From contig JAWCKR010000001.1 in the NCBI GenBank assembly GCA_038851755.1, positions 53,637 to 117,636 on the forward strand: a stretch of 64,000 nucleotides of DNA, in the 5' to 3' direction. Below are positions 10,424-42,175 of this stretch, in pieces. Under the pieces are notes generated by a model. It was not told the origin of the DNA. It worked only from the letters and a program-made list of their open reading frames with translations, and did not search any database. This DNA comes from Candidatus Hadarchaeales archaeon (lineage in GTDB: Archaea; Hadarchaeota; Hadarchaeia; Hadarchaeales; WYZ-LMO6). Made by a program: the position numbers and the translations under genes. Position 1 is the first letter of the stretch. Each line of letters opens with the position of its first letter.

Positions 10424-10424
10424 A

Positions 10425-10499
10425 CGGGCCTGGTGGGATTCGAACCCACGACTCCCGGCTTAAAAGGCCGGTGCGCTAGCCAGACTGCGCTACAGGCCC
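10425..10499 (-). tRNA. tRNA-Lys (anticodon UUU)
   Basis: Reverse strand GGGCCTGTAGCGCAGTCTGGCTAGCGCACCGGCCTTTTAAGCCGGGAGTCGTGGGTTCGAATCCCACCAGGCCCG. 7-bp acceptor stem, D-arm GCGC/GCGC, anticodon stem CCGGC/GCCGG with loop CTTTTAA, T-arm GTGGG-TTCGAAT-CCCAC, discriminator G, no encoded CCA; 75 nt. Confidence 0.9.
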
Positions 10500-10524
10500 A
10501 ACTAACGGAGGGGTCGAAACTACT

Positions 10525-24122: not shown

Positions 24123-25553
24123 CTAGGTGCCCCTCTCCGACTCCGAGGGGAGGAGGACGTCGTGGGGCCTGGTCTCCTGGGCCCCCAGGGGAGAGAGAAC
24201 GGCGAACCTGGCCTTCTCCCAGAGGTCCCTGATGCTCCTAGCCCCCGCGTACCCCATGGAGGCCCTCAGGCCCAGCACCAGCTCCTTCACGGCCGTGCTC
24301 ACCTCACCCTTGTAGGGCACCCACCCCTCCACGCCCTCCGCTATCCCCTTGGAAGGAACGGAGTACCTGTCCAGCGAGTACCTCTTGGCCATGGCCGAGG
24401 GACTCCCCATCCCCCTGTACTGCTTGTAGTACCTTCCCCCTATGCTCACCAGCGTCCCTGGGGCCTCCTTGCACCTGGCGAAGAGGTTCCCCGCCATGAC
24501 CACGGAGGCCCCGGCAGCCAGCGCCAGCGCTATGTCTCCCGGGCCCCTGACCCCCCCGTCGGCCATCACCGGGAGCTCCAGCCCGTAGTCCCTCAGGGCG
24601 TCGGCCACGCTTGCGGTGGCGTAGAGGGTGGGGGATCCCGCCTTCGTGACCTCGGTGGTCACGCATATCGAGCCGGAGCCCACCCCCGCCCTGAAACCGG
24701 CCACACCCTCCAGCTTGGTGATCACGTCCTCCGCGGCCTGGTAGGTCCCCACGTTCCCCACCACCAGGTCCGCCTCCACCTCCTCCAGCATCCTCTTGGT
24801 GGCCTCCAGCACGGCTGAGTTGTGGAAGTGGGCCACGTCCGTCACCAGCACGTTGACGTACCTGTCCAGCTTCTTCGCCCTCTCCAGGTCGAAGGGGGAG
24901 ACCGCGGCCGCGCACAGGAGCTGTCCCTCCTCGTCCCTGGCCGCCTCCGGGTACTTTCCCCTGAGCATGATGTCCCTGAAGGTGATGAGCCCCCTGAGGT
25001 TCCCGTTCTCGTCCACGATGGGGAGCTTCTCGATCTTGTGCTGGTGGAGAAGGTCCTTCGCCTCCTCCAGGCTTATCCCTTCCCTGGCCGTCACCACCTC
25101 CTTCGTCATCACGCTTTCCACCCTGAACTCGGGGTTGGCGAAGCGCACGTCCCTGCCCGTCAGGATGCCCACCAGCTTCCCACCCTTCACCACCGGAAGA
25201 CCCGAGATGTGGTGGGCCTCCATGAGCTTCATGGCCTCGCCCACCGTCTGGTCAGGGGCCACGGTCACCACCTCCCTTATCACCAGGGACTCCGCCCGCT
25301 TCACCTTCTTGGCCATCTCCACCTGCTCCTCCACGCTGCAGTTGCGGTGGAGGACGCCCACCCCTCCCTCCCTCGCCATCGCTATCGCCATCTCGGTCTC
25401 CGTGACGGTGTCCATCGGGGAGGAGACAAGGGGAATGTTCAGGGAATAGTTCTTGGTGAACCTGGTCCTCACGTCGATCTCGGAGGGCTCGACCGCCAGC
25501 CCGGGGAGCAGGATGAGGTCGTGGAAGGTGAGGGCCAGTTCAGCCCCCGTCAC
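24123..25553 (-). CDS. guaB: Inosine-5'-monophosphate dehydrogenase with CBS pair
   Basis: ...ALTFHDLILLPG...; tandem CBS domains; catalytic loop GVGSGSICVTTEVTKAGSP; ...GGVRGPGDIALALAAGA... GTG at 25553 is preceded by AGGAGGaaa. The track ORF to 25835 is a Gly-rich over-extension overlapping the upstream gene. Confidence 0.9.
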   Translation of the reverse strand: MTGAELALTFHDLILLPGLAVEPSEIDVRTRFTKNYSLNIPLVSSPMDTVTETEMAIAMAREGGVGVLHRNCSVEEQVEMAKKVKRAESLVIREVVTVAPDQTVGEAMKLMEAHHISGLPVVKGGKLVGILTGRDVRFANPEFRVESVMTKEVVTAREGISLEEAKDLLHQHKIEKLPIVDENGNLRGLITFRDIMLRGKYPEAARDEEGQLLCAAAVSPFDLERAKKLDRYVNVLVTDVAHFHNSAVLEATKRMLEEVEADLVVGNVGTYQAAEDVITKLEGVAGFRAGVGSGSICVTTEVTKAGSPTLYATASVADALRDYGLELPVMADGGVRGPGDIALALAAGASVVMAGNLFARCKEAPGTLVSIGGRYYKQYRGMGSPSAMAKRYSLDRYSVPSKGIAEGVEGWVPYKGEVSTAVKELVLGLRASMGYAGARSIRDLWEKARFAVLSPLGAQETRPHDVLLPSESERGT

Positions 25554-28746: not shown

Positions 28747-29916
28747 ATGTCAGAGCAACAGGAGTACGACGTGATCGTGGTGGGTGCAGGGCCCGCGGGC
28801 CTGATGGCTTCCAGGAAGGCCGCTGAGGCCGGGGCCAGCACCCTCCTGCTGGAGAGGGAGAACTCCCTGGGGAAAAAGCCCTGCGGGGAGGCTGTGTCCG
28901 TGTCCACGCTCGAGGACGCCGGAGTGAAGGGAGGGAGGTTCATCCGCAACCGCGTGGAGATCTTCAGGGTGCACGCCCCTGACGAGCGGAAGTACGTGGA
29001 CATCCTCTCCCGCAAGCTGGGAACGGCGGGATACGTGATAGAGAAGGGACTCTTCCTGAAAGAGCTGGCCTACCTGGCCGTCAAGAGGGGAGTGGAGATG
29101 AGGATGGGTTCGCCCGTGCTGGACCTGAGGAGGGTGGAGGGGTGGTGGGAGGTCCTAGTCAAGCAGGGGGCGGAGAGGAGGAAGTTCAGGGGAAAGATAG
29201 TGATAGGATGCGACGGGGTGAACTCGGTGGTGGCCGGGAAGGCCCTGCGGGTGAAAAAGCCCGAGGTCATCCCCTGCTTCCAGTACAAGATGGTGAACTG
29301 CGGGGTAGAGGACCCGCACACGCTGGAGGTCTACCTGGGGAAGGAGGTGGCCCCCGGGGGCTACGTGTGGCTCTTCCCGAAGGACGGGGGGGAAGCCAAC
29401 GTGGGGATAGGGGTGAGGGGGGCGCCGGCCAAGCCCTACCTAGACCGCTTCCTCTCCTCCCATCCCGAGCTCTTCGGCGGGGCCGGCGTGGTGGAGGTGG
29501 GCGCTGCACCCGTGCCGGTGGGGGGGGAAGTCGAGAGGGTGGTGGGGGAGGGGGTGATGGTGTGCGGGGATGCGGGCGGGCAGGTGATACCCCTCACGGG
29601 GGGAGGAATCCACTCCTCCGTGGTCGCGGGGAAGATGGCGGGAGAGGTGGCGGGAGAGGCCGTGAAGGGGGGCAGGGAACTGCAGGAATACCCCCGGAGA
29701 TACGAGGAGTGGAGCGAAAGGATCTCCCGGAGCCTGAAGGTGCTCAGGCTCATAGAGAAGCTGAGCGACAAGGAGCTGAACCAGCTGGCCGACCTCCTCA
29801 CCGGCCAGGACGTGGTGGACCTGGCCAACGGGACCAACCTGAAAAGGGTGGGGAGGAAGCTCCTGCGGCATCCTCACTTCGCCCTCCGCCTGGCGAGGGG
29901 GCTGCTGGGTGGTTGA
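28747..29916 (+). CDS. Geranylgeranyl reductase (digeranylgeranylglycerophospholipid reductase), FAD-dependent
   Basis: YDVIVVGAGPAGLMASRKAAEAGASTLLLER...KPCGEAVS... (FAD Rossmann + conserved Cys); 389 aa typical GGR. Confidence 0.9.
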   Translation: MSEQQEYDVIVVGAGPAGLMASRKAAEAGASTLLLERENSLGKKPCGEAVSVSTLEDAGVKGGRFIRNRVEIFRVHAPDERKYVDILSRKLGTAGYVIEKGLFLKELAYLAVKRGVEMRMGSPVLDLRRVEGWWEVLVKQGAERRKFRGKIVIGCDGVNSVVAGKALRVKKPEVIPCFQYKMVNCGVEDPHTLEVYLGKEVAPGGYVWLFPKDGGEANVGIGVRGAPAKPYLDRFLSSHPELFGGAGVVEVGAAPVPVGGEVERVVGEGVMVCGDAGGQVIPLTGGGIHSSVVAGKMAGEVAGEAVKGGRELQEYPRRYEEWSERISRSLKVLRLIEKLSDKELNQLADLLTGQDVVDLANGTNLKRVGRKLLRHPHFALRLARGLLGG

Positions 29917-30676
29917 GCTGGGCAGGGTGGAGAAGTACCTGAGGGAGGGGATGCGAAAGCATCCGCTGCACCTCACGCTGGTGGACCCCGAGAAGACCCG
30001 CGGGGACAAAGCGGGGGAACTCTGCAGGAGGGCGGAGAAAGCGGGGACCTCGGCCATCATGGTCGGGGGCTCCACCGTGTGCTCCACCACCCTCGTGGAC
30101 GAAACGGTGAAGGCCATCAAGAAGGAGGTGGAGCTCCCCGTCATCCTTTTTCCCAACAACCTCTCCGGCATCAGCAGGTACGCCGACGCCATCTTCTTCA
30201 TGTCCCTCCTCAACTCCTCCAACCCCTACTTCCTCATCGACGCGCAGGCCCTGGGGGCTCCCCTCGTGAGGGAGTACGGCCTGGAGGTCCTCCCCATGGG
30301 CTACCTCATCCTGGGACCGGGGGGAACGGCGGGCTTCGTGGGGCAGGCGAGGTTCCTCCCGCTGGAAAAGGCGGAGCTGGCGGCAGCCTACGCTCTAGCC
30401 GCCCAGTACCTGGGGATGCACTTCGTCTACCTGGAAGCGGGCTCGGGGGCCCCCACGCCCGTTCCACCCCAGACCATCTCCGCCGTCCGGAAGTGCGTGG
30501 ACCTCCCCCTCATCGTGGGAGGGGGAATAAGGACGGGAGAGGAGGCCAGGAGGGCGGCGCAGGCCGGGGCGGACCTGGTGGTGACGGGAACGGTGGTGGA
30601 GGAGGGAAGGGTGGAGGAGAAGATAGGGGAAATGGTGGAGGCCCTCCGAAAGGTGCGCCGGGGTAAGGAGCGTTGA
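29909..30676 (+). CDS. Geranylgeranylglyceryl phosphate synthase (PcrB family)
   Basis: ...HLTLVDPEKT...AIMVGGS...YLEAGSGAP...LIVGGGIRTGEEA is a TIM-barrel GGGPS. GTG start overlaps the GGR stop (GTGGTTGA). Confidence 0.9.
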   Translation: MVELGRVEKYLREGMRKHPLHLTLVDPEKTRGDKAGELCRRAEKAGTSAIMVGGSTVCSTTLVDETVKAIKKEVELPVILFPNNLSGISRYADAIFFMSLLNSSNPYFLIDAQALGAPLVREYGLEVLPMGYLILGPGGTAGFVGQARFLPLEKAELAAAYALAAQYLGMHFVYLEAGSGAPTPVPPQTISAVRKCVDLPLIVGGGIRTGEEARRAAQAGADLVVTGTVVEEGRVEEKIGEMVEALRKVRRGKER

Positions 30677-31713
30677 GGGACATCCACACCATCGACCTCC
30701 CCACCAGAGTGGTGGTGGGGAGAAAGGTGATCGAGAAGGTGGGGGAGACCTGCAGGGAGCTGGGCTTGAGGGGGAGGGTCCTGGTGCTCTCTGGTCCCCA
30801 CACCCAAACCAGGGCCGGAAGGAGGGTGATCACCTCACTGGAGGAAGAGGGCTTCGAGCCCAACCTCCTCAGGGTGGAGGGGGAACCCCTGGAGGAGGTG
30901 GAGGAGGAGATCCGGAGGACCAGGCCCTCCTTCCTGGTGGGGGTGGGGGGAGGGAGGGTGATAGACCTGGCCAAGTACTCCTCCTCGAGGGCCCGTCTTC
31001 CCTTCCTCAGCGTCCCCACCGCCGCCTCCCACGACGGCATCGCCAGCTCCAGGGCCTCCCTGCGCAGGCTGGGACCCCTCTCCGTGGACGCACGCACCCC
31101 CCTCGCCATCCTGGCCGACGTGGAGGTGATCTCCCGTTCCCCCCACCGCCTCACGGCGAGCGGGTGCGGTGACCTGATGGCCAAGTTCACCGCCGTGAGG
31201 GACTGGAGGCTCTCCCACCTCCTCACGGGGGAGTACTACGGGGACTACTCCGCACAGCTGGCCCTGATGAGCGCGGAGGTGACGGCGCGCAACTCCAAGC
31301 TGATAGGGGAGGGAAAGGAGGAAGGGGTGAGGGTGGTGGTGGAGGCCCTCATCAGCTGCGGGGTGGCCATGTGCATCGCCGGCAGCTCCAGGCCCTGCAG
31401 CGGCTCGGAGCACTCCTTCGCCCACGCGCTCGAGGAGGTCTCCCCCAACCCCTCCCTGCACGGGGAGAGGTGCGGGGTGGGCACCATCCTCATGGCCTAC
31501 CTCCACGGGATGAACTGGAAGAGGGTGCGCAGGGTCCTCTCGGAGGTGGGAGCACCCACCACGGCGGAGGAGCTGGGAGTGGAGGGGGAGGCGGTGGTGG
31601 AGGCCATGCTCAGGGCCAGGGAAATCAGGCCCGAGAGGTTCACCATCCTGAACAGGAAAAAGCTGAACAAGGAGATGGCGAGGAGGATAGCGGAAAAAAC
31701 GGGAGTGGTCTAG
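30673..31713 (+). CDS. egsA: Glycerol-1-phosphate dehydrogenase [NAD(P)+]
   Basis: 346 aa of the DHQS/glycerol-DH superfamily: ...VLSGPHT..., ...VGVGGGRVIDLAKY..., ...SHDGIAS..., metal ligands H..H. TTG start overlaps the GGGPS stop (TTGA). Confidence 0.88.
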   Translation: MRDIHTIDLPTRVVVGRKVIEKVGETCRELGLRGRVLVLSGPHTQTRAGRRVITSLEEEGFEPNLLRVEGEPLEEVEEEIRRTRPSFLVGVGGGRVIDLAKYSSSRARLPFLSVPTAASHDGIASSRASLRRLGPLSVDARTPLAILADVEVISRSPHRLTASGCGDLMAKFTAVRDWRLSHLLTGEYYGDYSAQLALMSAEVTARNSKLIGEGKEEGVRVVVEALISCGVAMCIAGSSRPCSGSEHSFAHALEEVSPNPSLHGERCGVGTILMAYLHGMNWKRVRRVLSEVGAPTTAEELGVEGEAVVEAMLRAREIRPERFTILNRKKLNKEMARRIAEKTGVV

Positions 31714-32804
31714 GAGGGAAAGCCCGTCTCGGAGAGGAGCTCCCGGGAAGAGTTCCCGAAGACCTCCTTTCTCATCTCCTCGAGCAGGAGGTCAAGGTTC
31801 CTCCCCTCCTTCGCGGAGATGGGGAGGACGGGAAGGGGGAGCCTGCCCAGCACCTCCATCTTCTCCCCCAGCTCCTGAGGGGAGAGGAGGTCCACCTTGT
31901 TGAGGGCCACCAGGATCCTCAGTCCCCTCTCCGAGAGGATCTCCAGACTCACCTTGAGCTTCCTGAGGATCTCCGACATGGGGTCGCTTCCGTCCACCAC
32001 CAGGACCACCAGGTCCGCGGAGTAAATCTCCTCGAGGGCCGCCTTGAAGGCCTCCACCATCCAGGGGGGCAGTCCCTCGATGAAGCCCACGGAGTCCGTC
32101 ATCAGGACCCTCTCGCAGCCCTTCACGGCCCTCGTCCTGACCGTCAGGGTGGTGAACATCCTGTCGTCCACCTCCACATCGGAGCGGGTGAGGGCGTTCA
32201 GGAGGGTGGACTTGCCGGCGTTGGTGTACCCCGCCAGAGCCACCAGCCTGAAACCCCTCCTCCTGCGCTGACCCCTCCTCTTCTCCCTCGACTCCGCCAG
32301 GGCCCTGAGCTTCTTCCTAAGGATGGCCATCCTCCTCTTCACCATGTCCAGGTACATGTTGAGCTCGTACTCACCCCTCCCCCGGAACCCTGGCTGCTCG
32401 ACCGAGAGGAGGTTCCTTATCCTCTCCCTCAGCCTGGGGAATTCGTAGCTGAGCCTGGCGTACTCCACCTGCAGCTTCGCCTCCGGTGATCCGGCCCTGC
32501 GGGCGAAGATCTCCAGGATGAGCTGAAACCTGTCCATCACCTCCACCCCCAGGGCCCTGTTCAGGTTGAAGAGCTGCGAGGGGGTGAGCTGGTTGGCGAA
32601 GATCACGAGCTCCGCCCCCTTCAGCCTCACGAGCTCGGCCACCTCCCCCACCTTCCCCCTTCCTATCTGGAAGGCCGGATCGGCCTCCCTCACCTGCACC
32701 ACCTTCCCCACCACCTCGTGCCCCATGGTCTCGGCCAGCTCCTGCAGCTCCCCCAGCTCGTCCCTTCCGCCCGGCTGCACCCTCTGCACGAGAACGGTAC
32801 GCAT
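31710..32804 (-). CDS. hflX: GTPase HflX
   Basis: N-terminal HflX domain plus G-domain: GYTNAGKSTLLNALT (G1), DSVGF (G3), NKVD (G4); 364 aa. Confidence 0.9.
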   Translation of the reverse strand: MRTVLVQRVQPGGRDELGELQELAETMGHEVVGKVVQVREADPAFQIGRGKVGEVAELVRLKGAELVIFANQLTPSQLFNLNRALGVEVMDRFQLILEIFARRAGSPEAKLQVEYARLSYEFPRLRERIRNLLSVEQPGFRGRGEYELNMYLDMVKRRMAILRKKLRALAESREKRRGQRRRRGFRLVALAGYTNAGKSTLLNALTRSDVEVDDRMFTTLTVRTRAVKGCERVLMTDSVGFIEGLPPWMVEAFKAALEEIYSADLVVLVVDGSDPMSEILRKLKVSLEILSERGLRILVALNKVDLLSPQELGEKMEVLGRLPLPVLPISAKEGRNLDLLLEEMRKEVFGNSSRELLSETGFPS

Positions 32805-32879
32805 CTCAGTAACTGGGTTTCCTGGAGTTTAATCCTGCCCCTCGGCGTCCCTATAAAGTGTACCTCCCAAGGGGGGAAG

Positions 32880-34649
32880 ATGCGGAGGCATGCGCACGCA
32901 GACCCCGGAGGGAAGAGGAAACGCGCCTCTCTCCTCATGGCCGCGCTGACGATGTCCCCCCTCATCCTTTCCCTCTCCCTCCCGCCAGCCGGTGCCCTCC
33001 GCCTCTCCCCCTCCTACACCTCGGTGGTGGTGGAGTTCCAGATCCTGGAGGACAGGACGGTAAGGGTGGGAGAGAACTGCGTCCTCAACCTCCCAAGTTT
33101 CTATTCTTCTATCACCATCAAGCGCACCCTTCCCTCCGAGAACGTGCAGGAGCTGGAGGCCTGGTGCGAACCTGGGGAGCTGAGGCTGGAGAACCGAACC
33201 GTGGAGGAGGGGACCGAGGTGACCCTCACCATCTCGTTCAGCTCTCCCTTCCGGGGGGAGCTGAGGTACGGGCTCTCCTACAGGGCGGCGGGATGGGTGG
33301 GCGGGGCTGGGCCCAAGTACGAGGCGGTGCTCGGGGGGGTGAGGATAGGGGCTGGAGGCTACCCCTACGAGAGCTACCGGATCACCATCAGGGGACCTCC
33401 CGGAAGCAAACTCTTCTGGCACGAGCCCAGGGATGCCGTTCCCTCGGCCGATGGCCTCTCCGTCACCTACTCCACCTCCGTGGGGGCACCAGGAAGCTTC
33501 GGAGGGATGCTCGCCACCTTCTACACCACGCCCGTCTACTACAAGCTCACCCTCACGGAGAGCCTGGGGAACTCCGGTGGGAGCAGCTGCGACCTGGTGA
33601 TGAACCTCCTCCTCTTCAGCGAGGGGAAGGCGCATTTCGCCTCGCTGGTTACCTCCGACCCTTCGCCCGGCAGCCTCTACGCGGACGAGGAGAACAACTT
33701 CTACGCCTCCTTCAGGCTGAAGCTGGCGCCAGGTGAGAACAAACGGGTAAAGGTGGAACTGGTGTGGAAGGTGGAGCTGTACGATCCGGGGATTTCCTCC
33801 GAGAACTCAGGTACCCTCGACGACCTGCCCCAGGGCATGGAGGAGTACACGGTGGAAAGGAAGTGGTGGGAGGTGGAGGAGCTGCGCCCCCTCTCCCTCC
33901 AGCTCACGGGAGGGGAGAGGAACCTCTACCTCCTCTGCCGCGAGCTTCTCCGGTGGATGGACGGCGCCATCGCCTACGTGCCCACCCAGGAGAGGCAGGG
34001 GGCCCTGGAGACCTACCGAAGGGGAGCGGGGGACTGCGACTGCCTGAGCGACCTCCTCATCGCCCTGCTCCGGTCCCTGGGCGTGCCCTCCCGCCTCTCC
34101 TTCGGCTGGACCGCGGAGGAAAACGGGGCTGGGAACCACGCCTGGGTGGAGGTCCATCTCCCGGGATGGGGGTGGCAACCGGTGGACCCCACCTGGTCGA
34201 AGGGCTCCGAGAAGTACCTCTTCAGGATGGACCCCCTCCACCTCTGCAGGGGCTCCAGGGGGCTGACCTCCTCCGACTCCTACCTCTCCAGGGCCTACTA
34301 CGGGGGCTACCCGGAGGTGGGGCTCGAGGAAGTCTCCCTCGTCCTCCTCTCGGAGGAGGAGGCCCTGCAGGAGTTCCTCCTCTCCGCCCGCACCCTTCTG
34401 TGCCTGGCGGAGGAGGGGGGGGAGGACCCCAGGCTGGAGGTGGCCCGGGAGAGCCTCCGGAGAGCCGAGAACGGCGGGGGAATGGAAGAAGCCCTTCGAT
34501 CCCTCTCCCTTTCCCTCTCGGTGCTGAGGGAAAGGGGGAAACCGCTCGAACTCCCCCGCAGGGTTCCCACCTGGGCTCTGGCGCTACTGGCGGGAAGTGC
34601 GGCGGCGCTGGCGTTGGCGCTGGGGCTGGGCCTGAGGAGGAGAGCCTGA
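32880..34649 (+). CDS. Secreted, C-terminally membrane-anchored transglutaminase-like (papain-fold Cys-His-Asp) protein
   Basis: N-terminal signal-like [22 protein letters not shown]; core [29 protein letters not shown]...[22 protein letters not shown] (TGase-like C/H/D); C-terminal TM helix [24 protein letters not shown] 32880 (alternative 32937); TATA-like ctATAAAg at 32861-68. Confidence 0.75.
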
Positions 34650-36008
34650 CCCGACCCTGGGCAACTCCTTCAGGGCCTTCTCCACCAGCTCCCTCGGGTA
34701 CTCGTAGTCCTCCAGCTTCCCCTGCAGGTAGGCGTCCCACGCCCCCAAATCGAGCATGCCATGCCCGCTGCAGTTGAAGAGGATCACCTTTTCCTCCCCC
34801 GTGCGCTTGCACCTCAGGGCCTCGTCCACCACCGCCCTTATCGCGTGGGCCGTCTCGGGGGCGACCACGAAGCCCTCCGCCCTGGCGAAGAGGTTGGCCG
34901 CCTCGAACACCTCGTTCTGGTGGTAGGCCAGGGCACCCACGTAACCCTCCTTGGTGAGCTTGCAGAGGAGGGGGGCGTCACCGTGGTACCTGAGACCACC
35001 CGCGTGGATGGGCGGGGGAACGAAGGTGTGCCCGAGGGTGTACATCTTCAGGAGAGGTGTGAGCCCGGCCGAGTCACCGTGGTCGTAGGTGTAAATCCCC
35101 TTGGTGAGGGTGGGACAGGCTTTGGGCTCGCAGGAGAAGGCCTGCAGCTCGGGCTTTTTCCCCGTGAGCTTGTCCATCAGGAAGGGGAAGAGGAGACCCG
35201 CGTAGTTGCTCCCCCCTCCCACGCACCCGAGGATCACGTCGGGATACTCCCCCGCCAACTCCATCTGTTTCTTGGCCTCCAGCCCCACCACGGTCTGGTG
35301 CAGGAGAACGTGGTTCAGCACGCTTCCCAGGGAGTACTTGGTGTTCCTGTGGGTGACGGCGTCCTCGATGGCCTCGGAGATGGCTATGCCCAGACTGCCG
35401 GGGTTCTGCGGATCCTCCTCCAGAATCCTCCTGCCGTACTCCGTCCTCTCGCTGGGACTGGGAACGCACTCCGCCCCCCATATCTCCATGAGGATCCTCC
35501 GGTAGGGCTTACCCTCGTAGCTAACCCTGACCATGTACACGGTGCACTCCAGCCCGAAGAGCATGGTGGCGAAGGCCAATGCACTTCCCCACTGTCCCGC
35601 CCCCGTTTCCGTGGTCAGCCTCTCCACGCCCTCCTTCATGTTGTAGTAGGCCTGGGCCACCGAGGTGTTCGGCTTGTGGCTCCCCGCGGGGCTCACCCCC
35701 TCCCACTTGTAGTAAATCCTGGCGGGGGTCTTCAGCATGCGCTCCAGCCTGACCGCCCTGTAGAGGGGGGTGGGCCTCCAGATCCTGTAGACCTCCCTCA
35801 CCTCCTCGGGGATGGGTATCCACCTCTCCTGGCTGACCTCCTGCTTGATCAGCTCCCTGGGGAAGATGGGCTCCAGATCCTGTGGGCCCACGGGCTTCCC
35901 CGTGGCCGGGTTGAGGGGGGGATCCAGAGGGGAGGGAAGGTCCGCCTGGATGTTGTACCAGGCCTTGGGCAGCTCCTCCTCGTCCAGCAGGAACTTCACG
36001 CGCTCCAT
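34584..36008 (-). CDS. trpB2: Tryptophan synthase beta-like protein TrpB2 (stand-alone)
   Basis: [25 protein letters not shown]... (TrpB2-type N-terminal extension); PLP-binding ...SHKPNT... and GGGSNYAG. No trpA neighbour. 66-nt convergent overlap with the preceding gene. Confidence 0.88.
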
Positions 36009-36046: not shown

Positions 36047-36769
36047 TTAAGGCACAAATCTGTTCTTCCCCAGGGAAAGGAGGAACTCACGGGTCTTGGT
36101 CCCCAGACCCAGCGTCTCAGCCCTCAGGAGGTCCTCCACCCCATCCACGTCCGTGGCCACCGTCTCCGACCGGTAAATCTTGGGCCTTATCCCCGCCCTG
36201 AGGCTCTCCCTCACATGGAGGGGGAAGCTCTCCCCTCCGAACCTGAGGGGGATCACGTCGGGCGGGCGCAGGAACAGGGCGTTGGTCCCCCGGGCGTAAG
36301 AGGGGGCGATCACCACCTCCCTCTCGGAGGAAGCCATCCCCACTATCCCCTCCACATCATCCACCCTGAGGAAGGGAAGATCGGCGGGGAGGATCAGGAC
36401 CTCCCTCGCTCCCTCCCTCACCGCCCTCCCCACCGCCAGCGAGAGGGCCAGGTTCAGCTCCAGCCCGGGCTCCCTCAGGACCTCCGCGCCCATCCCGGAG
36501 GCGAGGCGCAGGACCTCCTCGTCCGGTGAGACCACCACCCTCCTCATCCTCACCCTGGAGAGGACCCCCAGCATGTCAGAAAGCATGCACAGGACCAGTT
36601 CCCTCCTCTCCGGGGGAGTGAGGACCCCCTCGAAGGTGGACTTGGCCCTAGAGAGGGGTTTCAGGGGCAGAACCACCCAGCCTTTTCCTTCCTCCACGGT
36701 CTCCATGAACTCACGGAAGAAGACGCTTTTACCCCTTCGGAGGGATACGTGATTTATTACCGGGGGCAT
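36047..36769 (-). CDS. cofC: 2-phospho-L-lactate (or PEP) guanylyltransferase CofC
   Basis: ...[15 protein letters not shown]...; MobA-like NTP-transferase fold; 240 aa. ATG at 36769; a later in-frame ATG (36706, METVEEG...) is also possible and would remove the head-to-head overlap with cofG. Confidence 0.78.
36753..36760 (+). promoter_or_regulatory. TATA-like box (ATTTATTA) ~26 nt upstream of the cofG ATG (leaderless geometry)
   Basis: gtgATTTATTAccgggggcatcgaggaaagggtATG. Box centre to ATG 36782 is ~25.5 nt. Confidence 0.4.
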
Positions 36770-36781
36770 CGAGGAAAGGGT

Positions 36782-37795
36782 ATGGACCCCCCCCGCAAGG
36801 TGGTGACCTATTCCCTGAACGTCTTCGTGCCCCTCACCAACTTCTGTAGGAACCGATGCGCCTACTGCGGCTTCAGAAGGGAGGAGGGGGAAGCCACCTT
36901 CCTCTCTCCACAGGAGGTCTTCTCCCTCGTGCTAAGGGGGAAGAAGGCCGGATGCTCGGAAGTGCTGCTCACGCTGGGGGAGAGACCCGAGGTCTACCCC
37001 TCAGCGAGGGAGAAGCTCAGGGAGCTGGGCTACCGGACCACCTCCGAGTACCTGGAGGACCTGTGCAGGCACATCCTCAGGTTGGGCCTTCTCCCCCACA
37101 CCAACGCGGGGGTGCTGAGCGAGGAAGAGCTGGGCAGGCTCAGGAGGTACAACGCCAGCATGGGGTTGATGCTGGAGTGCGCCGCCAGGCTCGAGGCCCA
37201 CCGGGAGAGTCCAGGGAAGGACCCGGAGCTCAGGCTGAGGTTCATAGAGAAGGCCGGGAGGCTCAGGATCCCCTTCACCACGGGCCTCCTGGTGGGGATA
37301 GGGGAGAACCGAGAGGACAGGAGGAGGTCGCTGGAGGAGATAAGAAGACTGCACGAGGAGTACGGGCATATCCAGGAGGTCATCGTCCAGCCCTTTTCTC
37401 CCAAGCCAGGGACCCCGATGGGCGGTTTTCCCCCTCCCAGCCCGGAGGAGCTGCTGGACACCGTGAGGATGGCCGCGGAGATCCTTCCCCCAGACATGGG
37501 CATCCAGATCCCCCCGAACCTGGTTCCGGATGTGGTGCCCTTCCTCGAGGCTGGGGCCAACGACCTCGGAGGCCTCTCCGAGGTCACCCCTGACTTCGTG
37601 AATCCGGAGCACAACTGGCCTCCGCTGGGGGAGCTCCGGAGGAAGGTGGAGTCCGCAGGTTTCGAGCTCAGGGAAAGGCTACCCCTTTATCCCAAATACG
37701 CGACCGATGCCTCTTTCATGTCCGAGGAGGTCAGGAAGGTCACCTCCAGGCTGGCCGATGGGGAAGGCTACAGGCGTCCTCTCCAAAAAGATTAA
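36782..37795 (+). CDS. cofG: FO synthase subunit 1 (7,8-didemethyl-8-hydroxy-5-deazariboflavin synthase CofG), radical SAM
   Basis: ...VTYSLNVFVPLTNFCRNRCAYCGF... (CX3CX2C) and the remainder typical of CofG. ATG (MDPPRK) at 36782; the track start is GTG 36749. Confidence 0.9.
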   Translation: MDPPRKVVTYSLNVFVPLTNFCRNRCAYCGFRREEGEATFLSPQEVFSLVLRGKKAGCSEVLLTLGERPEVYPSAREKLRELGYRTTSEYLEDLCRHILRLGLLPHTNAGVLSEEELGRLRRYNASMGLMLECAARLEAHRESPGKDPELRLRFIEKAGRLRIPFTTGLLVGIGENREDRRRSLEEIRRLHEEYGHIQEVIVQPFSPKPGTPMGGFPPPSPEELLDTVRMAAEILPPDMGIQIPPNLVPDVVPFLEAGANDLGGLSEVTPDFVNPEHNWPPLGELRRKVESAGFELRERLPLYPKYATDASFMSEEVRKVTSRLADGEGYRRPLQKD

Positions 37796-37820
37796 GAACG
37801 TGGGAACCAGAGGCTCCAAC

Positions 37821-38975
37821 ATGAAAGGGGGAAGAGCGAGGGGCTCCTCCGCCCTGGAGGGACGGTGGGAGAAAAGGCTGGCGGAGATAGACCCCCTCGT
37901 GGCCGGGGCCCTGGACAGATCCCTCTCCGGCAAAAGCCTGAGTTTGAGGGAGACGGCAGAGCTGCTCAGGACGGAGGGGAGGGAACTGCAGCTCCTCCTC
38001 CTGGCGGCGGACCTGGTGAGGAGAGGGCTCGTGGGTGAGGTCGCCACCTACGTGGTCAACCGGAACATCAATCACACCAACATCTGCACGGGCTCCTGCA
38101 GGTTCTGCGCCTTCCGCCGCCCCCCCTCCCATCCGGAGGCCTACTCCCTCACCCCCCAGCAGCTGAGGGCGAAGGTGGAGGAGGCCGTGAGGATGGGGGC
38201 CACCGAAATCTGCCTGCAGGGTGGTCTCCACCCCGACTTCGGACTGGAAACTTACCTGGACCTCCTCCGCATCATCAGGGGGGTTTCGGAGGAGCTCCAC
38301 ATCCACGCCTTCTCCCCCGCCGAGCTCGACCACCTCTCCCGGAAAGAGGGGATGTCCGTGGATGAGGTGCTGAAACCTCTCAAGGAAGCCGGCCTGAACT
38401 CGGTTCCGGGGACGGCCGCGGAAATCCTGAGCGACAGGGTGAGGGAGATCATCTGCCCGACGAAGATCAAGACGAAGAGGTGGGTGGAAATCGTCAAGAC
38501 CTGTCACCGGAGGGGGATACCCACCACCTCCACCATGATGTACGGAACGGTGGAAACTCCCGAGGAAAGGGCCGGACACCTCCTGCTCCTGAGGGAAATC
38601 CAGAAGGAAACGGGAGGCTTCACGGAGTTTGTCCCCCTTCCCCTGGTTCCCAAGAAGACCGAACTTTATTCCTCGGGCATCACCGGTCCCACCATAAGGG
38701 ACAACCTGAGGACGCACGCCGTGGCCAGGCTGGCCCTGGCGGGTTACATCAACCACGTGCAGGCCTCATGGGTGAAGCTGGGACCGGAGGGGGCCTGCGC
38801 CATGCTGATGGCCGGGGCGGACGACCTGGGAGGAACCCTGTTCGAGGAGAACATCACCAGGGAGGCGGGAGGGGAGTGGGGGCAGGGAATGACCCCCCAC
38901 CAGCTCAGGCTCCTCATCCTGCGGGCCGGAAGGATACCCAGGCAGAGGTCCACCCTCTACGAACTCCTGGACTGA
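37821..38975 (+). CDS. cofH: FO synthase subunit 2 (CofH), radical SAM
   Basis: ...YVVNRNINHTNICTGSCRFCAF... (CX3CX2C); ...LQGGLHPDF...; 384 aa from ATG (MKGGRARG) at 37821. The track ORF from 37707 overlaps the cofG 3' end. Confidence 0.9.
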   Translation: MKGGRARGSSALEGRWEKRLAEIDPLVAGALDRSLSGKSLSLRETAELLRTEGRELQLLLLAADLVRRGLVGEVATYVVNRNINHTNICTGSCRFCAFRRPPSHPEAYSLTPQQLRAKVEEAVRMGATEICLQGGLHPDFGLETYLDLLRIIRGVSEELHIHAFSPAELDHLSRKEGMSVDEVLKPLKEAGLNSVPGTAAEILSDRVREIICPTKIKTKRWVEIVKTCHRRGIPTTSTMMYGTVETPEERAGHLLLLREIQKETGGFTEFVPLPLVPKKTELYSSGITGPTIRDNLRTHAVARLALAGYINHVQASWVKLGPEGACAMLMAGADDLGGTLFEENITREAGGEWGQGMTPHQLRLLILRAGRIPRQRSTLYELLD

Positions 38976-39898
38976 CGGCCCATCTCCTCCAGGACCCTCC
39001 TGGCCAGCCTCCTCCTCTCCGCCAGATTCCTCATCCAGAGGTTGGCCAGATGCACCCTCATCCCCACCTCCTCCACGGAGGGAGCGAACTCCCTGTCCGA
39101 GAGGTGCAGGAAGAAGTGCCCTGCCACCTCCCTGTAGTACTCGGCCACCCCCCTGGGGCTCACCTCGAACCCCAGGGCCTCCATCAACTTCCCCGCGGGA
39201 CCGCTCACCGGGGCCCTCCCCAGAATGGGACTCACCACCCCCACCTCCTCCTTCCTCCTCCTCAGCTCCTCCCGGATCTTCCTGAGGGAGAGGATGGGCC
39301 CTATGCTGGTCACGGGGTTGCTGGGCCCTATCAGCACGAAGTCGCTCTCCCTGAGCGCGCGCAGAACCCCGGGGGCGGGCTCAGCCTCCTCAGAACCCCT
39401 GAACCTCACCCCCCTGACCCTCTCCCTCCCCCCTCGACCCACCCAGAACTCCTGGAAATGCACCCAGCCCCGGGGGGTGAGGATTTCCGTGACCACCCTG
39501 TCGTCCGTCATGGGCAGGACCCTGGCCCTCACCCCCCATCTCCTGCAGAGCTCGGAGGTGAACCGGGAGAGCCTCTTCCCCCTCCTGAGCTCCAGGGTCC
39601 TGAGAAGGCAGGTCGCCCTGTCCCTGTCCCCCAGCCTGAGGAGCTCCTTCACCCCCAGTTCCCGCAGGGCGAGGTGGGTCTCAAAGGTGTCGCCCCTTAT
39701 CCCCCACCAGGTCTCCTCGTTGATGAGACCGGAAAGGGTGTAGACCACGGCATCCAGGTCGGGGGAAACGTGCAGACCCGACACCTCCACGTCGTCTCCG
39801 GTGTTGACCACCACGCACAGCTCATCCTCCTCCACCTCCCTCACCATCCCCTGCAGGAGCTTCGGGGTGCCCGTGCCCCCGGAAAGGAGGGCGATCAT
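38957..39898 (-). CDS. cofD: 2-phospho-L-lactate transferase (LPPG:FO transferase) CofD
   Basis: MIALLSGGTGTPKLLQGM... and the rest of the CofD/YvcK-like fold; 313 aa. Confidence 0.9.
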   Translation of the reverse strand: MIALLSGGTGTPKLLQGMVREVEEDELCVVVNTGDDVEVSGLHVSPDLDAVVYTLSGLINEETWWGIRGDTFETHLALRELGVKELLRLGDRDRATCLLRTLELRRGKRLSRFTSELCRRWGVRARVLPMTDDRVVTEILTPRGWVHFQEFWVGRGGRERVRGVRFRGSEEAEPAPGVLRALRESDFVLIGPSNPVTSIGPILSLRKIREELRRRKEEVGVVSPILGRAPVSGPAGKLMEALGFEVSPRGVAEYYREVAGHFFLHLSDREFAPSVEEVGMRVHLANLWMRNLAERRRLARRVLEEMGRQSRSS

Positions 39899-39921
39899 CT
39901 CCCCAGCTCCCCCTCCCCCCT

Positions 39922-39939
39922 AAAAAGGGTGGGCTTTTT
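39922..39939. promoter_or_regulatory. Palindromic bidirectional promoter element AAAAAG-GGTGGG-CTTTTT between divergent cofD and the HAD gene
   Basis: Arms AAAAAG/CTTTTT are reverse complements. The minus-strand CTTTTTA centre is ~26 nt from the cofD ATG (39898). The plus-strand CTTTTTTT run is ~32 nt from the HAD ATG (39970). Confidence 0.4.
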
Positions 39940-39969
39940 TTCTTCCCCCTCCAGGTATCGGGGACCTGG

Positions 39970-40593
39970 ATGAGGGTAAAGGCTGTGCTCTTCGACCTGG
40001 ACGGGGTGCTGGTGGACTCCCTAGACGTCTGGTACAGGTCGATGAACGAGACCCTGAGCAAGTTCGGAAGGGAGAGGGTGGGGAAGGGGGAGTACCTCAA
40101 GAGGTACTGGGGCTTCAGCCTCTCCAAGAACTTCGAGAGGCTGGGGCTGGGAAGGGAAGCCGTGGACTACTGCCTCTCCCGATACGAGCACCACCTGGAA
40201 GAGATCCAACCTTTCCCCGAAACGAGGGAGGTGCTGGAAGAACTCAGGAGGAGGAGGTTCAAGCTGGCCCTCGTCACCAACACCCCCTCCCGCATGGTGC
40301 AGCGCCTCCTCTCCAAACTGAACCTGAGGGAGTTCTTTCACGCCGTCATCACGGGGGACGATGTGAGGAAGGCCAAGCCACATCCAGACGCCGTGAGAAA
40401 GGCCTGCCGCCAGCTGGAGGTCCCTCCGGAGCAGGCTGTGCTGGTGGGGGACACCAGAAGCGACGTGCTGGCGGGAAGGAGCGCCAAAGTGGTGGTGGTG
40501 GGAGTGGGGGTGGAGGGAGATGTCAGGATCGAGAACCTGAGAGACCTCCTCCTCTTCCTGAGGACCTCAGGAGAAGAGGTCCTTCTCCCTTGA
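39970..40593 (+). CDS. HAD-superfamily hydrolase (phosphatase / beta-phosphoglucomutase-like subfamily IA)
   Basis: MRVKAVLFDLDGVLVDS (motif I DxDG); ...LALVTNTP... (motif II); ...KAKPHPD...LVGDTRSD... (motifs III/IV). Confidence 0.8.
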   Translation: MRVKAVLFDLDGVLVDSLDVWYRSMNETLSKFGRERVGKGEYLKRYWGFSLSKNFERLGLGREAVDYCLSRYEHHLEEIQPFPETREVLEELRRRRFKLALVTNTPSRMVQRLLSKLNLREFFHAVITGDDVRKAKPHPDAVRKACRQLEVPPEQAVLVGDTRSDVLAGRSAKVVVVGVGVEGDVRIENLRDLLLFLRTSGEEVLLP

Positions 40594-41325
40594 CCTCACC
40601 AGCTCCCTGGCTCTCCCCTTTCCCTTCTCGTAGACCGCTCCCCTCACCAGCACCACCGGGGTACCCTCCCCCGCCTCGCCCATCATCAGAACGGCCGCGG
40701 CCGCCAGGGCATCGGCCTGGGCCAGCACCGTGACCTTCAGCTCCTTCCCGTACAGGTCCCTTCTTCCCCTGAGGTCGAGCAGGGGTTTCATTCCCGCCAC
40801 ACCTATGGCCACGCCCAGGCACCCCGTCCTGAAGGCCCTGCCCTGGGTGTCGGAGATGATCACGGCCACCTCCACTCCCAGTTCCTCCCTGATCCTCCTC
40901 CTGATCTTCTCGGCGCTACCGTCGGGGTCCCGTGGGAGGAGGGTCACATGGTCCTTCTCCACGTTGGAGTGATCCACCCCGGCGTTGGCGCACACGAAGC
41001 CGTGCTCCGTTCTTGTGATGAGCACGTGAGAGGACCTCAGGATTTCCCTGGCCTCCCTGAGGATCACCTCCACCTCCCTGGCGTCCTTCTCCAGACGCGA
41101 GGCCAGCCTCTTCGCCGCTTCTGAGGGCCTGATCCTTCTGAGGTCCACGACCGCACCCTCCGCCTTGGAGACTATGGACTGGGCAACCACGAGCACGTCC
41201 CCGGATTGGAGGGAGAGCCCCTGGGAGCGAAGGGCCTTCACCACCAGCTCCCCTATGTCGTCCCCCTTCTTCACCATGGGAAAACCGGGGAGGGGGATCA
41301 CCTCCATCCTGGAGAGTTCGGGCAT
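40567..41325 (-). CDS. cofE: Coenzyme F420-0:L-glutamate ligase CofE (paralogue 1)
   Basis: ...MEVIPLPGFPMVKKGDDIGELV...SKAEG...ANAGVDHSN... typical CofE. ATG at 41325 (MPELSRMEV...) lies ~26.5 nt from the centre of the palindromic TATA at 41343-60 (leaderless geometry). The track start is GTG 41343 inside the palindrome. Confidence 0.85.
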   Translation of the reverse strand: MPELSRMEVIPLPGFPMVKKGDDIGELVVKALRSQGLSLQSGDVLVVAQSIVSKAEGAVVDLRRIRPSEAAKRLASRLEKDAREVEVILREAREILRSSHVLITRTEHGFVCANAGVDHSNVEKDHVTLLPRDPDGSAEKIRRRIREELGVEVAVIISDTQGRAFRTGCLGVAIGVAGMKPLLDLRGRRDLYGKELKVTVLAQADALAAAAVLMMGEAGEGTPVVLVRGAVYEKGKGRARELVRSREKDLFS

Positions 41326-41342
41326 CCTAGCAGTTTCCCACA

Positions 41343-41360
41343 CCGGGATTTTATACCCGG
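41343..41360. promoter_or_regulatory. Palindromic TATA element CCGGG-ATTTTATA-CCCGG shared by the two divergent cofE paralogues
   Basis: 5-bp perfect inverted arms around an 8-bp A/T box. Centre is 26.5 nt from the minus-strand cofE ATG (41325) and ~56 nt from the plus-strand cofE GTG (41408). Confidence 0.45.
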
Positions 41361-41407
41361 CTTAGAACCCGAACACCTTCATAAGGGGGGAGAACCACTT
41401 CTCACCC

Positions 41408-42175
41408 GTGGAAGTGAGGCTGATAGGCATCAGGACACCCCTGGTGAGGCCGGGGGACCATCTCCCCAGCCTGCTCCTGAAGACCCTGAGGAAGGCGGGG
41501 GGGCTGAGGAACGGCGACATCCTGGTCCTCTCCTCCAAGGTGGTGGCCGTCTCCCAGGGAAGGATGGTGAAGCTCTCGGAAGTCAGGCCCAGCGCCAGAG
41601 CCCTGCGCCTCTCCAGGAAGGCCGGCCTGGACCCCTCCTTCGTGGAAGTGGTGCTGAGGGAGGCTGACGCGGTGCTCGGAGTCTCCAGGGGGGCCCTCCT
41701 CACCCTGGTGAAGGGTCTCCTCTGCGCCAACGCGGGGGCGGACCTCTCCAACGCCCCACCCGGTTACGCCATCCTCCTCCCCTCCGAACCGCAGCGGTTC
41801 GCGGAGGGGCTGAGGGAATACCTCAGGAAAGAGGAGGGGGTGGAGGTGGGAATAGTCCTCTCCGACAGCACGGTGCGACCCCTCAGGCTGGGAACGGTGG
41901 GGCAGGCGGTGGGAATCTCCGGGGTGCCGGGGGCTCTCGACTGCCGGGGAAGGCGTGACCTCTTCGGCAGGAGGCTGAGGGTGACGAGAAGGGCCATCGC
42001 CGATCAGCTGGCCACGGCCGGTGAACTCCTGATGGGGGAGGCGGGGGAGAGGATTCCCCTAGTGGTGGTGAGGGGCCTCAGGATAAGGGGCAAAGGTGTG
42101 GGCACTCCTGCAGTGAAACCGGAGGAGTGTCTTTACTCCCAGCTGCTGGCGGGGAAGATCAGGAGGAGCGGCTGA
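41408..42175 (+). CDS. cofE: Coenzyme F420-0:L-glutamate ligase CofE (paralogue 2)
   Basis: MEVRLIGIRTPLVRPGDHLPSLLL...SSKVVAVSQG...CANAGADLSN... is a second full-length CofE. GTG is the first in-frame start after an upstream TAG. Confidence 0.85.
   Translation: MEVRLIGIRTPLVRPGDHLPSLLLKTLRKAGGLRNGDILVLSSKVVAVSQGRMVKLSEVRPSARALRLSRKAGLDPSFVEVVLREADAVLGVSRGALLTLVKGLLCANAGADLSNAPPGYAILLPSEPQRFAEGLREYLRKEEGVEVGIVLSDSTVRPLRLGTVGQAVGISGVPGALDCRGRRDLFGRRLRVTRRAIADQLATAGELLMGEAGERIPLVVVRGLRIRGKGVGTPAVKPEECLYSQLLAGKIRRSG

Follow-up and report, generated by a model that had tools for sequence, protein, structure and literature searches.

What does an archaeon of the phylum Hadarchaeota make from the gene that lies back to back with its hflX, and what would the product do at the cell surface? 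Hadarchaeota are uncultured archaea of the subsurface and hot springs, and for them the transglutaminase-like protein considered here is one of the few cell-surface components with a predictable catalytic role. Archaeal genomes very commonly carry transglutaminase-like thiol enzymes, and we know of almost none with a known substrate. The gene lies in a stretch of 64,000 nucleotides (the 64-kb window) and is genuine, belonging to an uncultured member of the Hadarchaeota: its 589-aa product equals NCBI protein P0001 in a database comparison (100% identity and coverage), and its GC3 of 0.87 is the same as that of the neighbouring genes. It is also a known one, being correctly labelled as transglutaminase-like in GenBank and other public databases. 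The reading frame (Table 1) is nested in a longer mechanical ORF opening at GTG 32718, a start that would run 87 nt into hflX and bury the signal segment, and a start at ATG 32937 would lose the basic n-region; both are disfavoured because homologue N-termini and the position of the TATA-like element speak against them. The product is very probably a membrane-tethered, outward-facing member of the well-known transglutaminase-like (Cys-His-Asp) family. An earlier note on this DNA, made from the letters alone, had proposed just such an exported protein with a C-terminal anchor, and it is borne out by the domain search, the invariance of the triad, the fold matches, the hydropathy and the gene order.

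Table 1. Features of the transglutaminase-like gene and its flanks (nucleotide positions are those of the window; aa, residues of the product).
Feature	Position (nt)	Strand	Basis
hflX GTPase gene, conserved divergent partner	31710..32804	-	ORF; Pfam GTP-bdg_N/M and MMR_HSR1 on orthologues
TTTAAT (ATTAAA on minus strand), 29 nt upstream of hflX ATG at 32804; likely TATA element	32828..32833	-	sequence and relative loci
TATAAA box-like element, 28 nt before ATG; candidate promoter element	32852..32857	+	read from sequence; 'cctataaac' at 80%-identical locus L003
Complete CDS, transglutaminase-like surface protein, 589 codons and stop	32880..34649	+	P0001 identity, GC3
Signal-peptide-like N-terminus, aa 1-39: basic n-region, hydrophobic core aa 17-34, c-region PPAGA↓L	32880..32996	+	hydropathy, family conservation; cleavage predicted
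Beta domain 1, aa 45-216; fold of M1-aminopeptidase/LTA4H N-domain, Ost1/ribophorin I, BDI_1141 N-domain	33012..33527	+	
Beta-sandwich 2, aa 219-298; counterpart of the sandwich before the core in 3isr	33534..33773	+	
Transglutaminase-like papain-fold core, aa 320-490 (Pfam part aa 339-437, nt 33894-34190)	33837..34349	+	Pfam, alignment, AF2, fold matches
10-residue Cys motif, aa 384-393	34029-34058	+	read from sequence
Cys386 codon, predicted catalytic, motif GDC	34035..34037	+	invariant 24/24; aligns with Cys of 3isr and TgpA 6g49
NHAWVEV motif, aa 419-425	34134-34154	+	read from sequence
His420 codon, predicted catalytic, motif NHAW	34137..34139	+	invariant; aligns with HAW His of TgpA
VDPT motif, aa 435-438	34182-34193	+	read from sequence
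Asp436 codon, predicted catalytic, motif VDPT	34185..34187	+	invariant; aligns with DPT of TgpA
Three-helix bundle stalk, aa 492-552, then 11-residue linker	34353..34535	+	AF2, pLDDT >90 in stalk
C-terminal transmembrane helix, aa 564-585, and predicted cytoplasmic RRRA tail	34569..34646	+	hydropathy, AF2 helix 564-588, family conservation
66-nt convergent overlap with trpB2 (34584..36008, -)	34584..34649	both	ORF coordinates, locus comparison

Family membership rests on the core. Pfam Transglut_core (PF01841, papain-like clan CA) matched at 66 bits (E=4.4e-18; cut-off, 23 bits), as it did in all 24 aligned homologues, and the motifs GDC...NHAWVEV...VDPT, found exactly where the earlier note had placed them, follow the canonical Cys-His-Asp order. 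The triad conservation on which that note had staked its claim holds as well: Cys386, His420 and Asp436 are invariant in both a 10-sequence and a 24-sequence alignment of homologues, down to 28% identity, and align with the catalytic residues or motifs of 3isr and TgpA (6g49). An AlphaFold (AF2) model of the protein (pLDDT 83, pTM 0.74) predicts a papain-like alpha+beta core, which structure comparison matched to 3isr, TgpA, TG2, TG3, LapG, PeiW and PNGase, with 3isr as the best match. The same fold might also have been retained in a surface adhesin or scaffold without enzymatic activity, given that transglutaminase-like domains are present in methanogen adhesin-like proteins (PMC11532034) and that members of the wider family carry added Ig-like, CARDB and CarboxypepD_reg domains. 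We regard this as extremely improbable, however: Cys, His, Asp and their flanking motifs stay invariant at 28-80% identity while the remainder of the protein diverges quickly, as one expects of an active enzyme.

Hydropathy finds just two hydrophobic segments in the protein, aa 16-37 and aa 561-586, the second followed by RRRA, in agreement with the single C-terminal transmembrane helix and tail that had been claimed for it. The N-terminal segment is kept in 52 of 57 full-length relatives and the C-terminal helix in 48, and the both-ends layout is the same as in our protein in 45. A signal peptide, likewise anticipated by the earlier note, is predicted from the hydropathy, the charged n-region, the AGA↓L site and the conservation of the segment among relatives; cleavage would probably fall at AGA↓L. 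Basic residues stand both at the extreme N-terminus and behind the C-terminal helix, and the positive-inside rule would turn the ectodomain outward, with the three-helix stalk and the transmembrane anchor placed C-terminal of the core in the AF2 model.

The transmembrane helix would not be the final anchor if the motif near the C-terminus, the helix after it and the basic tail together formed a sortase-like tripartite signal, at which an archaeosortase cleaves the protein and transfers it to lipid or envelope. The three parts (GKPLELPxRxPxW, a hydrophobic helix and RRR) are indeed conserved in close homologues, and in P0048, a bathyarchaeal protein of distant kinship, the C-terminus is a textbook PGF-CTERM signal (…GIPGFPITSIMMGILVGIILVKWCRGG), showing that archaeosortase surface anchoring does occur in the wider family. 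In our protein, however, no PGF, PEF, PEP or VPXXXP motif abuts the C-terminal helix; the motif that is there lies about 5-10 residues off the helix and is degenerate in the 32%-identical P0010. Many relatives have an (A)LG(K/E)PP-type motif at the stalk end, and because the distance from (A)LGKPP to the helix is variable in the wider family, the end of a helical stalk fits better than a cleavage site. A scan of the window for similar C-termini returned one other match, at 24745..25449 (+), which runs antisense inside the IMPDH gene and leaves no other real gene of the window with such an end, and the window genes checked include no apparent archaeosortase. Sorting of this kind is thus very unlikely, and the processing by an archaeosortase or PEP-CTERM system that the earlier note had entertained finds no backing at the helix or in the rest of the window.

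Ahead of the core, the earlier note had described a region of ~380 aa with an unknown fold, possibly of beta-sandwich repeats. The region is really about 280-300 aa long (aa 40-320), and fold matches resolve it into two recognisable beta domains, so that the fold is not unknown. The second, a small sandwich, carries a conserved DEENN loop (aa 269-273), in which N273 alone is strictly invariant. The Pfam DUF2207 N-terminal domain (PF09972, gathering score 24.4 bits) had no match in our protein; sub-threshold matches of 14.6-21 bits in 4 of 24 relatives, three of which begin at position 3 of the profile, around aa 30, suggest a remote kinship with beta domain 1. The Ost1-like look of this first domain might be taken for a means of recognising N-glycoproteins, in which case the enzyme would be an amidase for non-peptide amide bonds in glycoconjugates of the envelope, for instance a PNGase-like deglycosylating or deamidating one. 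But the fold similarity is equal for Ost1, M1 aminopeptidase N-domains, TAF2, ITIH1 and lpg2210, and beta domain 1 is therefore a general fold that carries no OST signature; Pfam Ribophorin_I had no match in our protein or in 24 relatives, and among the fold matches PNGase comes far behind 3isr, the transglutaminases, LapG and PeiW. An amidase of this description is highly improbable.

Around the gene lie housekeeping genes (hflX, trpB2, and genes for the synthesis of lipids and F420), which offer no clue to its function. The divergence from hflX that had been pointed out is nonetheless a conserved arrangement: the two genes are 75 nt apart, and hflX is adjacent and divergent upstream in 10 of 10 relative loci having an upstream flank. 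This makes a small, clean case of a divergent pair that was kept while both outer flanks were reshuffled; in deeper lineages, PAN lies downstream. Each gene of the pair has a candidate promoter. The TATAAA, already noticed just upstream of our gene, is probably a promoter element, and its spacing would fit an archaeal mRNA with no leader or a very short one. The TTTAAT probably serves the divergent promoter of hflX as its TATA element: of eight relative loci that were compared, five (L003, L004, L001, L008 and L009) have a TTTAAT/TTTAAA/TTAAAT-type element spaced much the same from the hflX ATG, and L002, L007 and L010 show none. At the other end of the gene, the overlap with trpB2 has exactly the 66 nt given for it before, and codes for the transmembrane anchor on the plus strand and for a low-complexity TrpB2 tail on the minus strand. 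It measures 72 nt in L003 and 4 nt in L004 and L005, is absent in L001, and is a clade-specific by-product of a ~20-aa extension of the TrpB2 tail rather than a conserved trait. Except for its constant back-to-back position with hflX across the phylum the gene is ordinary, and its analysis leaves current understanding unchanged.

The close relatives all come from Hadarchaeota. GC content and the neighbouring genes had at first pointed to a Methanopyrus or pseudomurein origin, which the exact NCBI match and nine GTDB loci, every one from Hadarchaeota, reject. In a sequence search of the big database the next-best matches were TgpA-like proteins; a second search there, with a profile of the 24-sequence alignment, brought up the same ten proteins and no others. 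The N-terminal module is found together with a transglutaminase core in 74 non-redundant clusters at 50% identity. A literature search for Hadesarchaea plus transglutaminase found nothing; Rv2569c, considered as a supporting case, was set aside, as one paper calls it a serine protease and none was found naming it together with transglutaminase.

Sequence and fold cannot tell hydrolysis from transamidation. We favour a hydrolase, that is, a cysteine protease, isopeptidase or amidase rather than a transamidating enzyme, with a probability of roughly 0.45 and with catalytic competence presumed from the conserved triad. The protein would be exported and type-I-like, with an N-terminal signal or anchor segment that carries it across the membrane and one Arg-tailed helix at the C-terminus that keeps it there, leaving about 520 residues outward: the M1/Ost1-type beta domain, the small beta-sandwich, the papain-fold core and the membrane-adjacent three-helix stalk, in this order. 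Cys386, activated by His420 and Asp436, would attack the carbonyl of an amide in a protein substrate to give a thioester, most likely resolved by water; the two beta domains would supply substrate binding, and the enzyme might trim or process membrane-proximal proteins of the envelope space or extracellular polypeptides. Counted for this reading were the strength of the Transglut_core match, the invariant triad, the AF2 model, the layout shared with 45 of the 57 relatives and the JGI name given to several family members, 'transglutaminase-like putative cysteine protease', together with the M1-N/BDI_1141-type first domain and the M20 and M24 peptidase genes that adjoin the gene of one bathyarchaeal relative. 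Microbial transglutaminase homologues were, moreover, first predicted as proteases (Makarova et al., 1999, cited in PMC10318531).

Against a hydrolase counts the periplasmic domain of TgpA (Pseudomonas aeruginosa PA2873; PDB 6g49/6g4h), the closest sequence homologue with biochemistry, whose transglutaminase activity was measured in vitro (PMC3507681). Were our protein a true transglutaminase, the archaeal equivalent of TgpA in bacteria, a Lys epsilon-amine or some other amine would resolve the Cys386 thioester, and the resulting isopeptide cross-links would stabilise envelope proteins (the S-layer or its anchoring). The rank of TgpA-like proteins in the sequence search speaks for this, and the stalk-borne, membrane-proximal position would suit envelope cross-linking; yet the top structural match is the putative protease 3isr, and no candidate substrate gene is linked to ours. 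The flanks that define TgpA are absent too: its N-terminal multi-pass membrane domain (PF11992) had no match in our protein, with its one N-terminal and one C-terminal hydrophobic segment, or in 24 relatives, and DUF4129 (PF13559) found no counterpart at E<=1 in our protein or at E<=0.1 in those relatives, which disposes of the DUF3488/4129-type architecture that had been put forward for checking. TgpA, in turn, is without the two N-terminal beta domains. A transglutaminase is accordingly possible but doubtful. A fuller version, in which the Ost1/M1-like domain of a TgpA analogue selects substrates for envelope cross-linking and the pairing with hflX (and PAN) reflects envelope remodelling co-regulated with translational and proteostatic stress responses, seems improbable; if true, no isopeptide cross-linking system would have been defined before it in an archaeal cell envelope, pseudomurein aside.

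The pseudomurein endoisopeptidases PeiW and PeiP and the periplasmic protease LapG match our protein far more distantly than 3isr does. PeiW and PeiP are recognised by pseudomurein-binding repeats together with a C71 catalytic domain; our protein lacks this combination, a Pfam search having found no such repeats in it, and neither the link to pseudomurein nor the S-layer cross-linking envisaged earlier gains support. Hadarchaeota are not known to make pseudomurein. The N-domains of M1 aminopeptidases and LTA4H and the luminal domains of Ost1/ribophorin I resemble beta domain 1 at the level of fold only (5-15% identity, no Pfam match), a likeness that implies neither aminopeptidase nor oligosaccharyltransferase function. 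The putative protease BDI_1141 (Parabacteroides distasonis, PDB 3kd4) shares an M1-aminopeptidase-N-like beta domain upstream of its core, but it is bacterial, has no sequence-level match to our protein and ends in a beta domain, where the AF2 model of ours ends in a three-helix bundle and a transmembrane helix. The CHU putative cysteine protease of Cytophaga hutchinsonii, 3isr, shares the small beta-sandwich packed before Transglut_core, at an identity of only about 15%. It is a soluble two-domain protein of 293 aa, whereas ours also has a signal peptide, a further large beta domain, the three-helix stalk and the membrane-spanning anchor. The whole series, from the signal peptide through the M1/Ost1-like beta domain, the beta-sandwich and the core to the helical stalk and the anchor, defines one coherent, uncharacterised architecture.

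The transglutaminase-like gene is real, and the earlier note's reading of it is essentially right. It lies in an enclosing plus-strand reading frame running from a GTG at 32718 to 34649 (mechanical ORF list of the window), and its 589-aa product from the ATG at 32880 matches an NCBI protein at 100% identity over 100% of its length, which is encoded on a 135-kb contig. Because its third-position GC (0.87) equals that of the flanking genes, the gene is native and not a GC-rich phantom. Several further ORFs overlap it, out of frame or antisense; their translations are rich in Pro, Gly and Arg, which phantom ORFs typically show in DNA of 64% GC. The 75-nt spacer between this gene and hflX looks like two back-to-back archaeal promoters, which would yield leaderless or short-leader mRNAs.

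The match to Pfam Transglut_core spans aa 339-437 (E=4.4e-18; 66 bits against a threshold of 23), and NCBIfam returned zero matches above threshold for the 589-aa protein. The motifs first taken to mark the core do occur, at aa 384-393, 419-425 (NHAWVEV) and 435-438 (VDPT). A search of 5.8 billion proteins yielded ten full-length homologues (32-100% identity), beneath which there were only weak TgpA-like bacterial matches. The proposed Cys-His-Asp triad was not lost on alignment: Cys386, His420 and Asp436 are invariant among the ten and still invariant among 24 sequences with identity down to 28%, as are G384, D385, D391, R398, W410, E424, P437 and W439. A PDB profile search recovered 3isr (a putative cysteine protease of Cytophaga hutchinsonii; E=1.4e-12), in which the catalytic Cys and His align, and TgpA (6g49; E=6e-8), in which the full triad does. 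These alignments show an intact, strongly conserved triad in what is predicted to be a membrane-tethered, outward-facing transglutaminase-like thiol enzyme.

Only two segments are hydrophobic in a Kyte-Doolittle scan, aa 16-37 and aa 561-586. A basic n-region precedes the first, and PPAGA|L, a classical small-x-small site, comes after it; the second has RRRA behind it. The positive-inside rule would put both ends in the cytoplasm and ~520 residues outside, and signal cleavage would leave a mature type I protein anchored at its C-terminus. The N-terminal segment and the C-terminal helix with its basic tail are kept in the ten-homologue alignment. In the wider family, 57 full-length relatives were compared: 52 have the N-terminal segment, 48 the helix and 45 both, and an internal hydrophobic segment occurs in just one. 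Hydropathy and conservation thus agree with the suggested signal peptide and membrane anchor, cleavage of the signal being presumed. Archaeosortase or PEP-CTERM processing, also suggested, is unsupported: no such signature motif adjoins the C-terminal helix, and no second protein within the 64-kb window has a like tail.

Features of the window and of homologous loci, and domains of the predicted protein
Feature	Location	Strand	Remarks
Radical SAM protein, 530 aa	27097-28689	+	N-terminal 'HMPTM' zinc-ribbon domain (Pfam PF23545)
Ether-lipid trio	28747-31713	+	geranylgeranyl reductase, GGGP synthase (PcrB), glycerol-1-phosphate dehydrogenase (Fe-ADH type)
hflX	31710-32804	-	divergent from transglutaminase-like gene
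AT element TTTAAT	32828-32833	other strand	29 nt upstream of hflX ATG
TATAAA	32852-32857	+	28 nt upstream of ATG 32880
Phantom-type ORFs (190-340 aa)	32829-33635; 32858-33736; 33764-34777; 34222-34812	-; +; +; -	overlap the gene
trpB2-type gene	34584-36008	-	convergent
trpB2 overlap, window	34584-34649		66 nt
trpB2 overlap, L003	6657-6728		72 nt; 80% identical
trpB2 overlap, L004 and L005			4 nt
F420 biosynthesis cluster	36047-42175		cofC-like, cofG, cofH, cofD, HAD hydrolase, two F420-ligase/CofE-type genes
tRNA-Lys(TTT)	10424-10500	-	ARAGORN/Rfam
PAN gene	L002 9851-11068; L013 6788-7912; L014 4861-5943	same as transglutaminase-like gene	follows it
Distant relative, L012	5001-7469 + flanks		GCA_000349625.1, ALXK01000022.1; single-cell genome labelled Thaumarchaeota SCGC
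Beta domain 1	residues 45-216		AlphaFold2 model
Beta-sandwich 2	residues 219-298		AlphaFold2 model
Alpha/beta core	residues about 320-490		AlphaFold2 model
Three-helix bundle	residues 492-552		AlphaFold2 model
Transmembrane helix	residues 564-588		AlphaFold2 model

The divergent hflX reported earlier is present, and nothing else in the neighbourhood is as well conserved as the pair that it forms with the transglutaminase-like gene. Among the loci holding homologues, tblastn of the window neighbours places hflX divergent and adjacent in L001/L006, L002, L003, L004 and L007 to L010, and L013 and L014 are arranged likewise. With a spacing of 35-140 nt, the pairing is kept in every Hadarchaeota relative locus having an upstream flank, and it survives at transglutaminase identities of 29-38% and HflX identities of 59-63%, where every other neighbour is different; it is absent at the locus of a bathyarchaeal relative. 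The pairing may reflect either shared regulation or mere inertia. Near the pair, egsA, trpB2 and cofC are variably present. In two deeper-branching lineages, the gene for the proteasome-activating nucleotidase (PAN) comes next on that strand, after a tiny gap or with overlapping gene calls, suggesting possible co-transcription; in the window's clade, the convergent trpB2 holds this position.

The trpB2 overlap is exactly as long as claimed, and L001 has none. Its length differs among loci because the TrpB2 of the window and of L003 is lengthened at its C-terminus by a low-complexity tail of some 20 aa, an antisense reading of the Ala/Leu/Gly-rich membrane-anchor codons of the neighbouring gene; relatives without this tail (70-72% identity) overlap by only 4 nt. 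The overlap is recent and probably neutral, and stems from a stop codon that has shifted in GC-rich DNA. A conserved regulatory device was rejected.

The surroundings are housekeeping genes (purine biosynthesis, ether-lipid genes, hflX, trpB2, F420 cluster, RtcB). The F420 cluster lies directly downstream of trpB2 and is syntenic with L001; the ether-lipid genes are consecutive and reach 4 nt into the hflX 3' end. The radical SAM protein is possibly a methylase of pterin or methanopterin type, which in a non-methanogen would be unexpected. The tRNA is the sole structured RNA found by ARAGORN or Rfam in the 64-kb window.

Searched alone against 1.84 billion representatives, the N-terminal-module profile matched 97 proteins at E<=1e-3 (22 at E<=1e-30). 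Within a local HMM set of 99 sequences (96 newly fetched matches and three redundant cluster members), 77 have the transglutaminase core at about residues 290-480, or 74 without the redundant members. The core is present in essentially all matches except fragments and giant repeat proteins, and the N-terminal module is therefore its dedicated partner. Giant Calx-beta repeat adhesins with type IX secretion tails (P0036, P0037, P0039, P0047) also matched, at E down to 3e-26; with only 12-16 bits per repeat and an alignment that does not keep step with the Calx-beta units, these are probably repeat-amplified noise. In more remote family members, CARDB, Ig-like or CarboxypepD_reg domains are present as well. 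One of them, EMR73931.1 ("Thaumarchaeota archaeon SCGC…"), carries extra Ig-like and CarboxypepD_reg domains and ends in a PGF-CTERM archaeosortase signal, a tail that shows surface display to be a family theme. M20 and M24 peptidase genes lie beside it, at L012 downstream on the same strand. Scanning GTDB species genomes with close-family patterns gave nine loci, all in Hadarchaeota/Hadesarchaea MAGs.

The transglutaminase-like annotation was already known, and the superfamily has been on record since 1999; new are the Hadarchaeota-wide hflX pairing, the explanation for the trpB2 overlap, the identification of the N-terminal folds and the delineation of a coherent, uncharacterised architecture. 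The N-terminal region, previously called an unknown fold, resolves into two known domain kinds when an AlphaFold2 model built on the ten-sequence alignment (mean pLDDT 83, pTM 0.74) is compared with the PDB by Foldseek: 3isr ranks first (E=4e-16, its whole 286-residue chain covered), followed by BDI_1141 (3kd4; E=1e-10), Ost1/ribophorin I of oligosaccharyltransferase (4e-7 to 4e-6, about 330 columns), TgpA (4e-7) and then many M1 aminopeptidases via their N-terminal domains. At the level of sequence, the only matches were sub-threshold ones to DUF2207_N (14.6-21 bits, cut-off 24.4) in 4 of 24 relatives; three of them begin near aa 30, at position 3 of the profile.

As to the reaction, we favour resolution of the acyl-enzyme by hydrolysis, at a probability of roughly 0.45: the closest structure, 3isr, belongs to a putative protease; domains of the accessory kind are found in peptidases and in BDI_1141, itself a putative protease; and those prokaryotic enzymes of the transglutaminase fold whose envelope substrates are known (LapG, PeiW/PeiP) are hydrolases. 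Proteases were also the original prediction for microbial homologues (Makarova et al. 1999, as cited in PMC10318531). Cross-linking, in which transamidation resolves the acyl-enzyme, is a less probable outcome that draws on TgpA, the nearest relative with biochemistry, which has transglutaminase activity (PMC3507681); minor alternatives share the remainder. Pseudomurein chemistry, raised by the earlier note, is unsupported, as no pseudomurein-binding repeats were found in the window protein; Hadarchaeota are not known to have a pseudomurein wall. Set against known systems, the modelled beta domain 1 resembles the N-terminal domains of M1 aminopeptidases, Ost1 and BDI_1141, and sandwich 2 together with the core has the architecture of 3isr.
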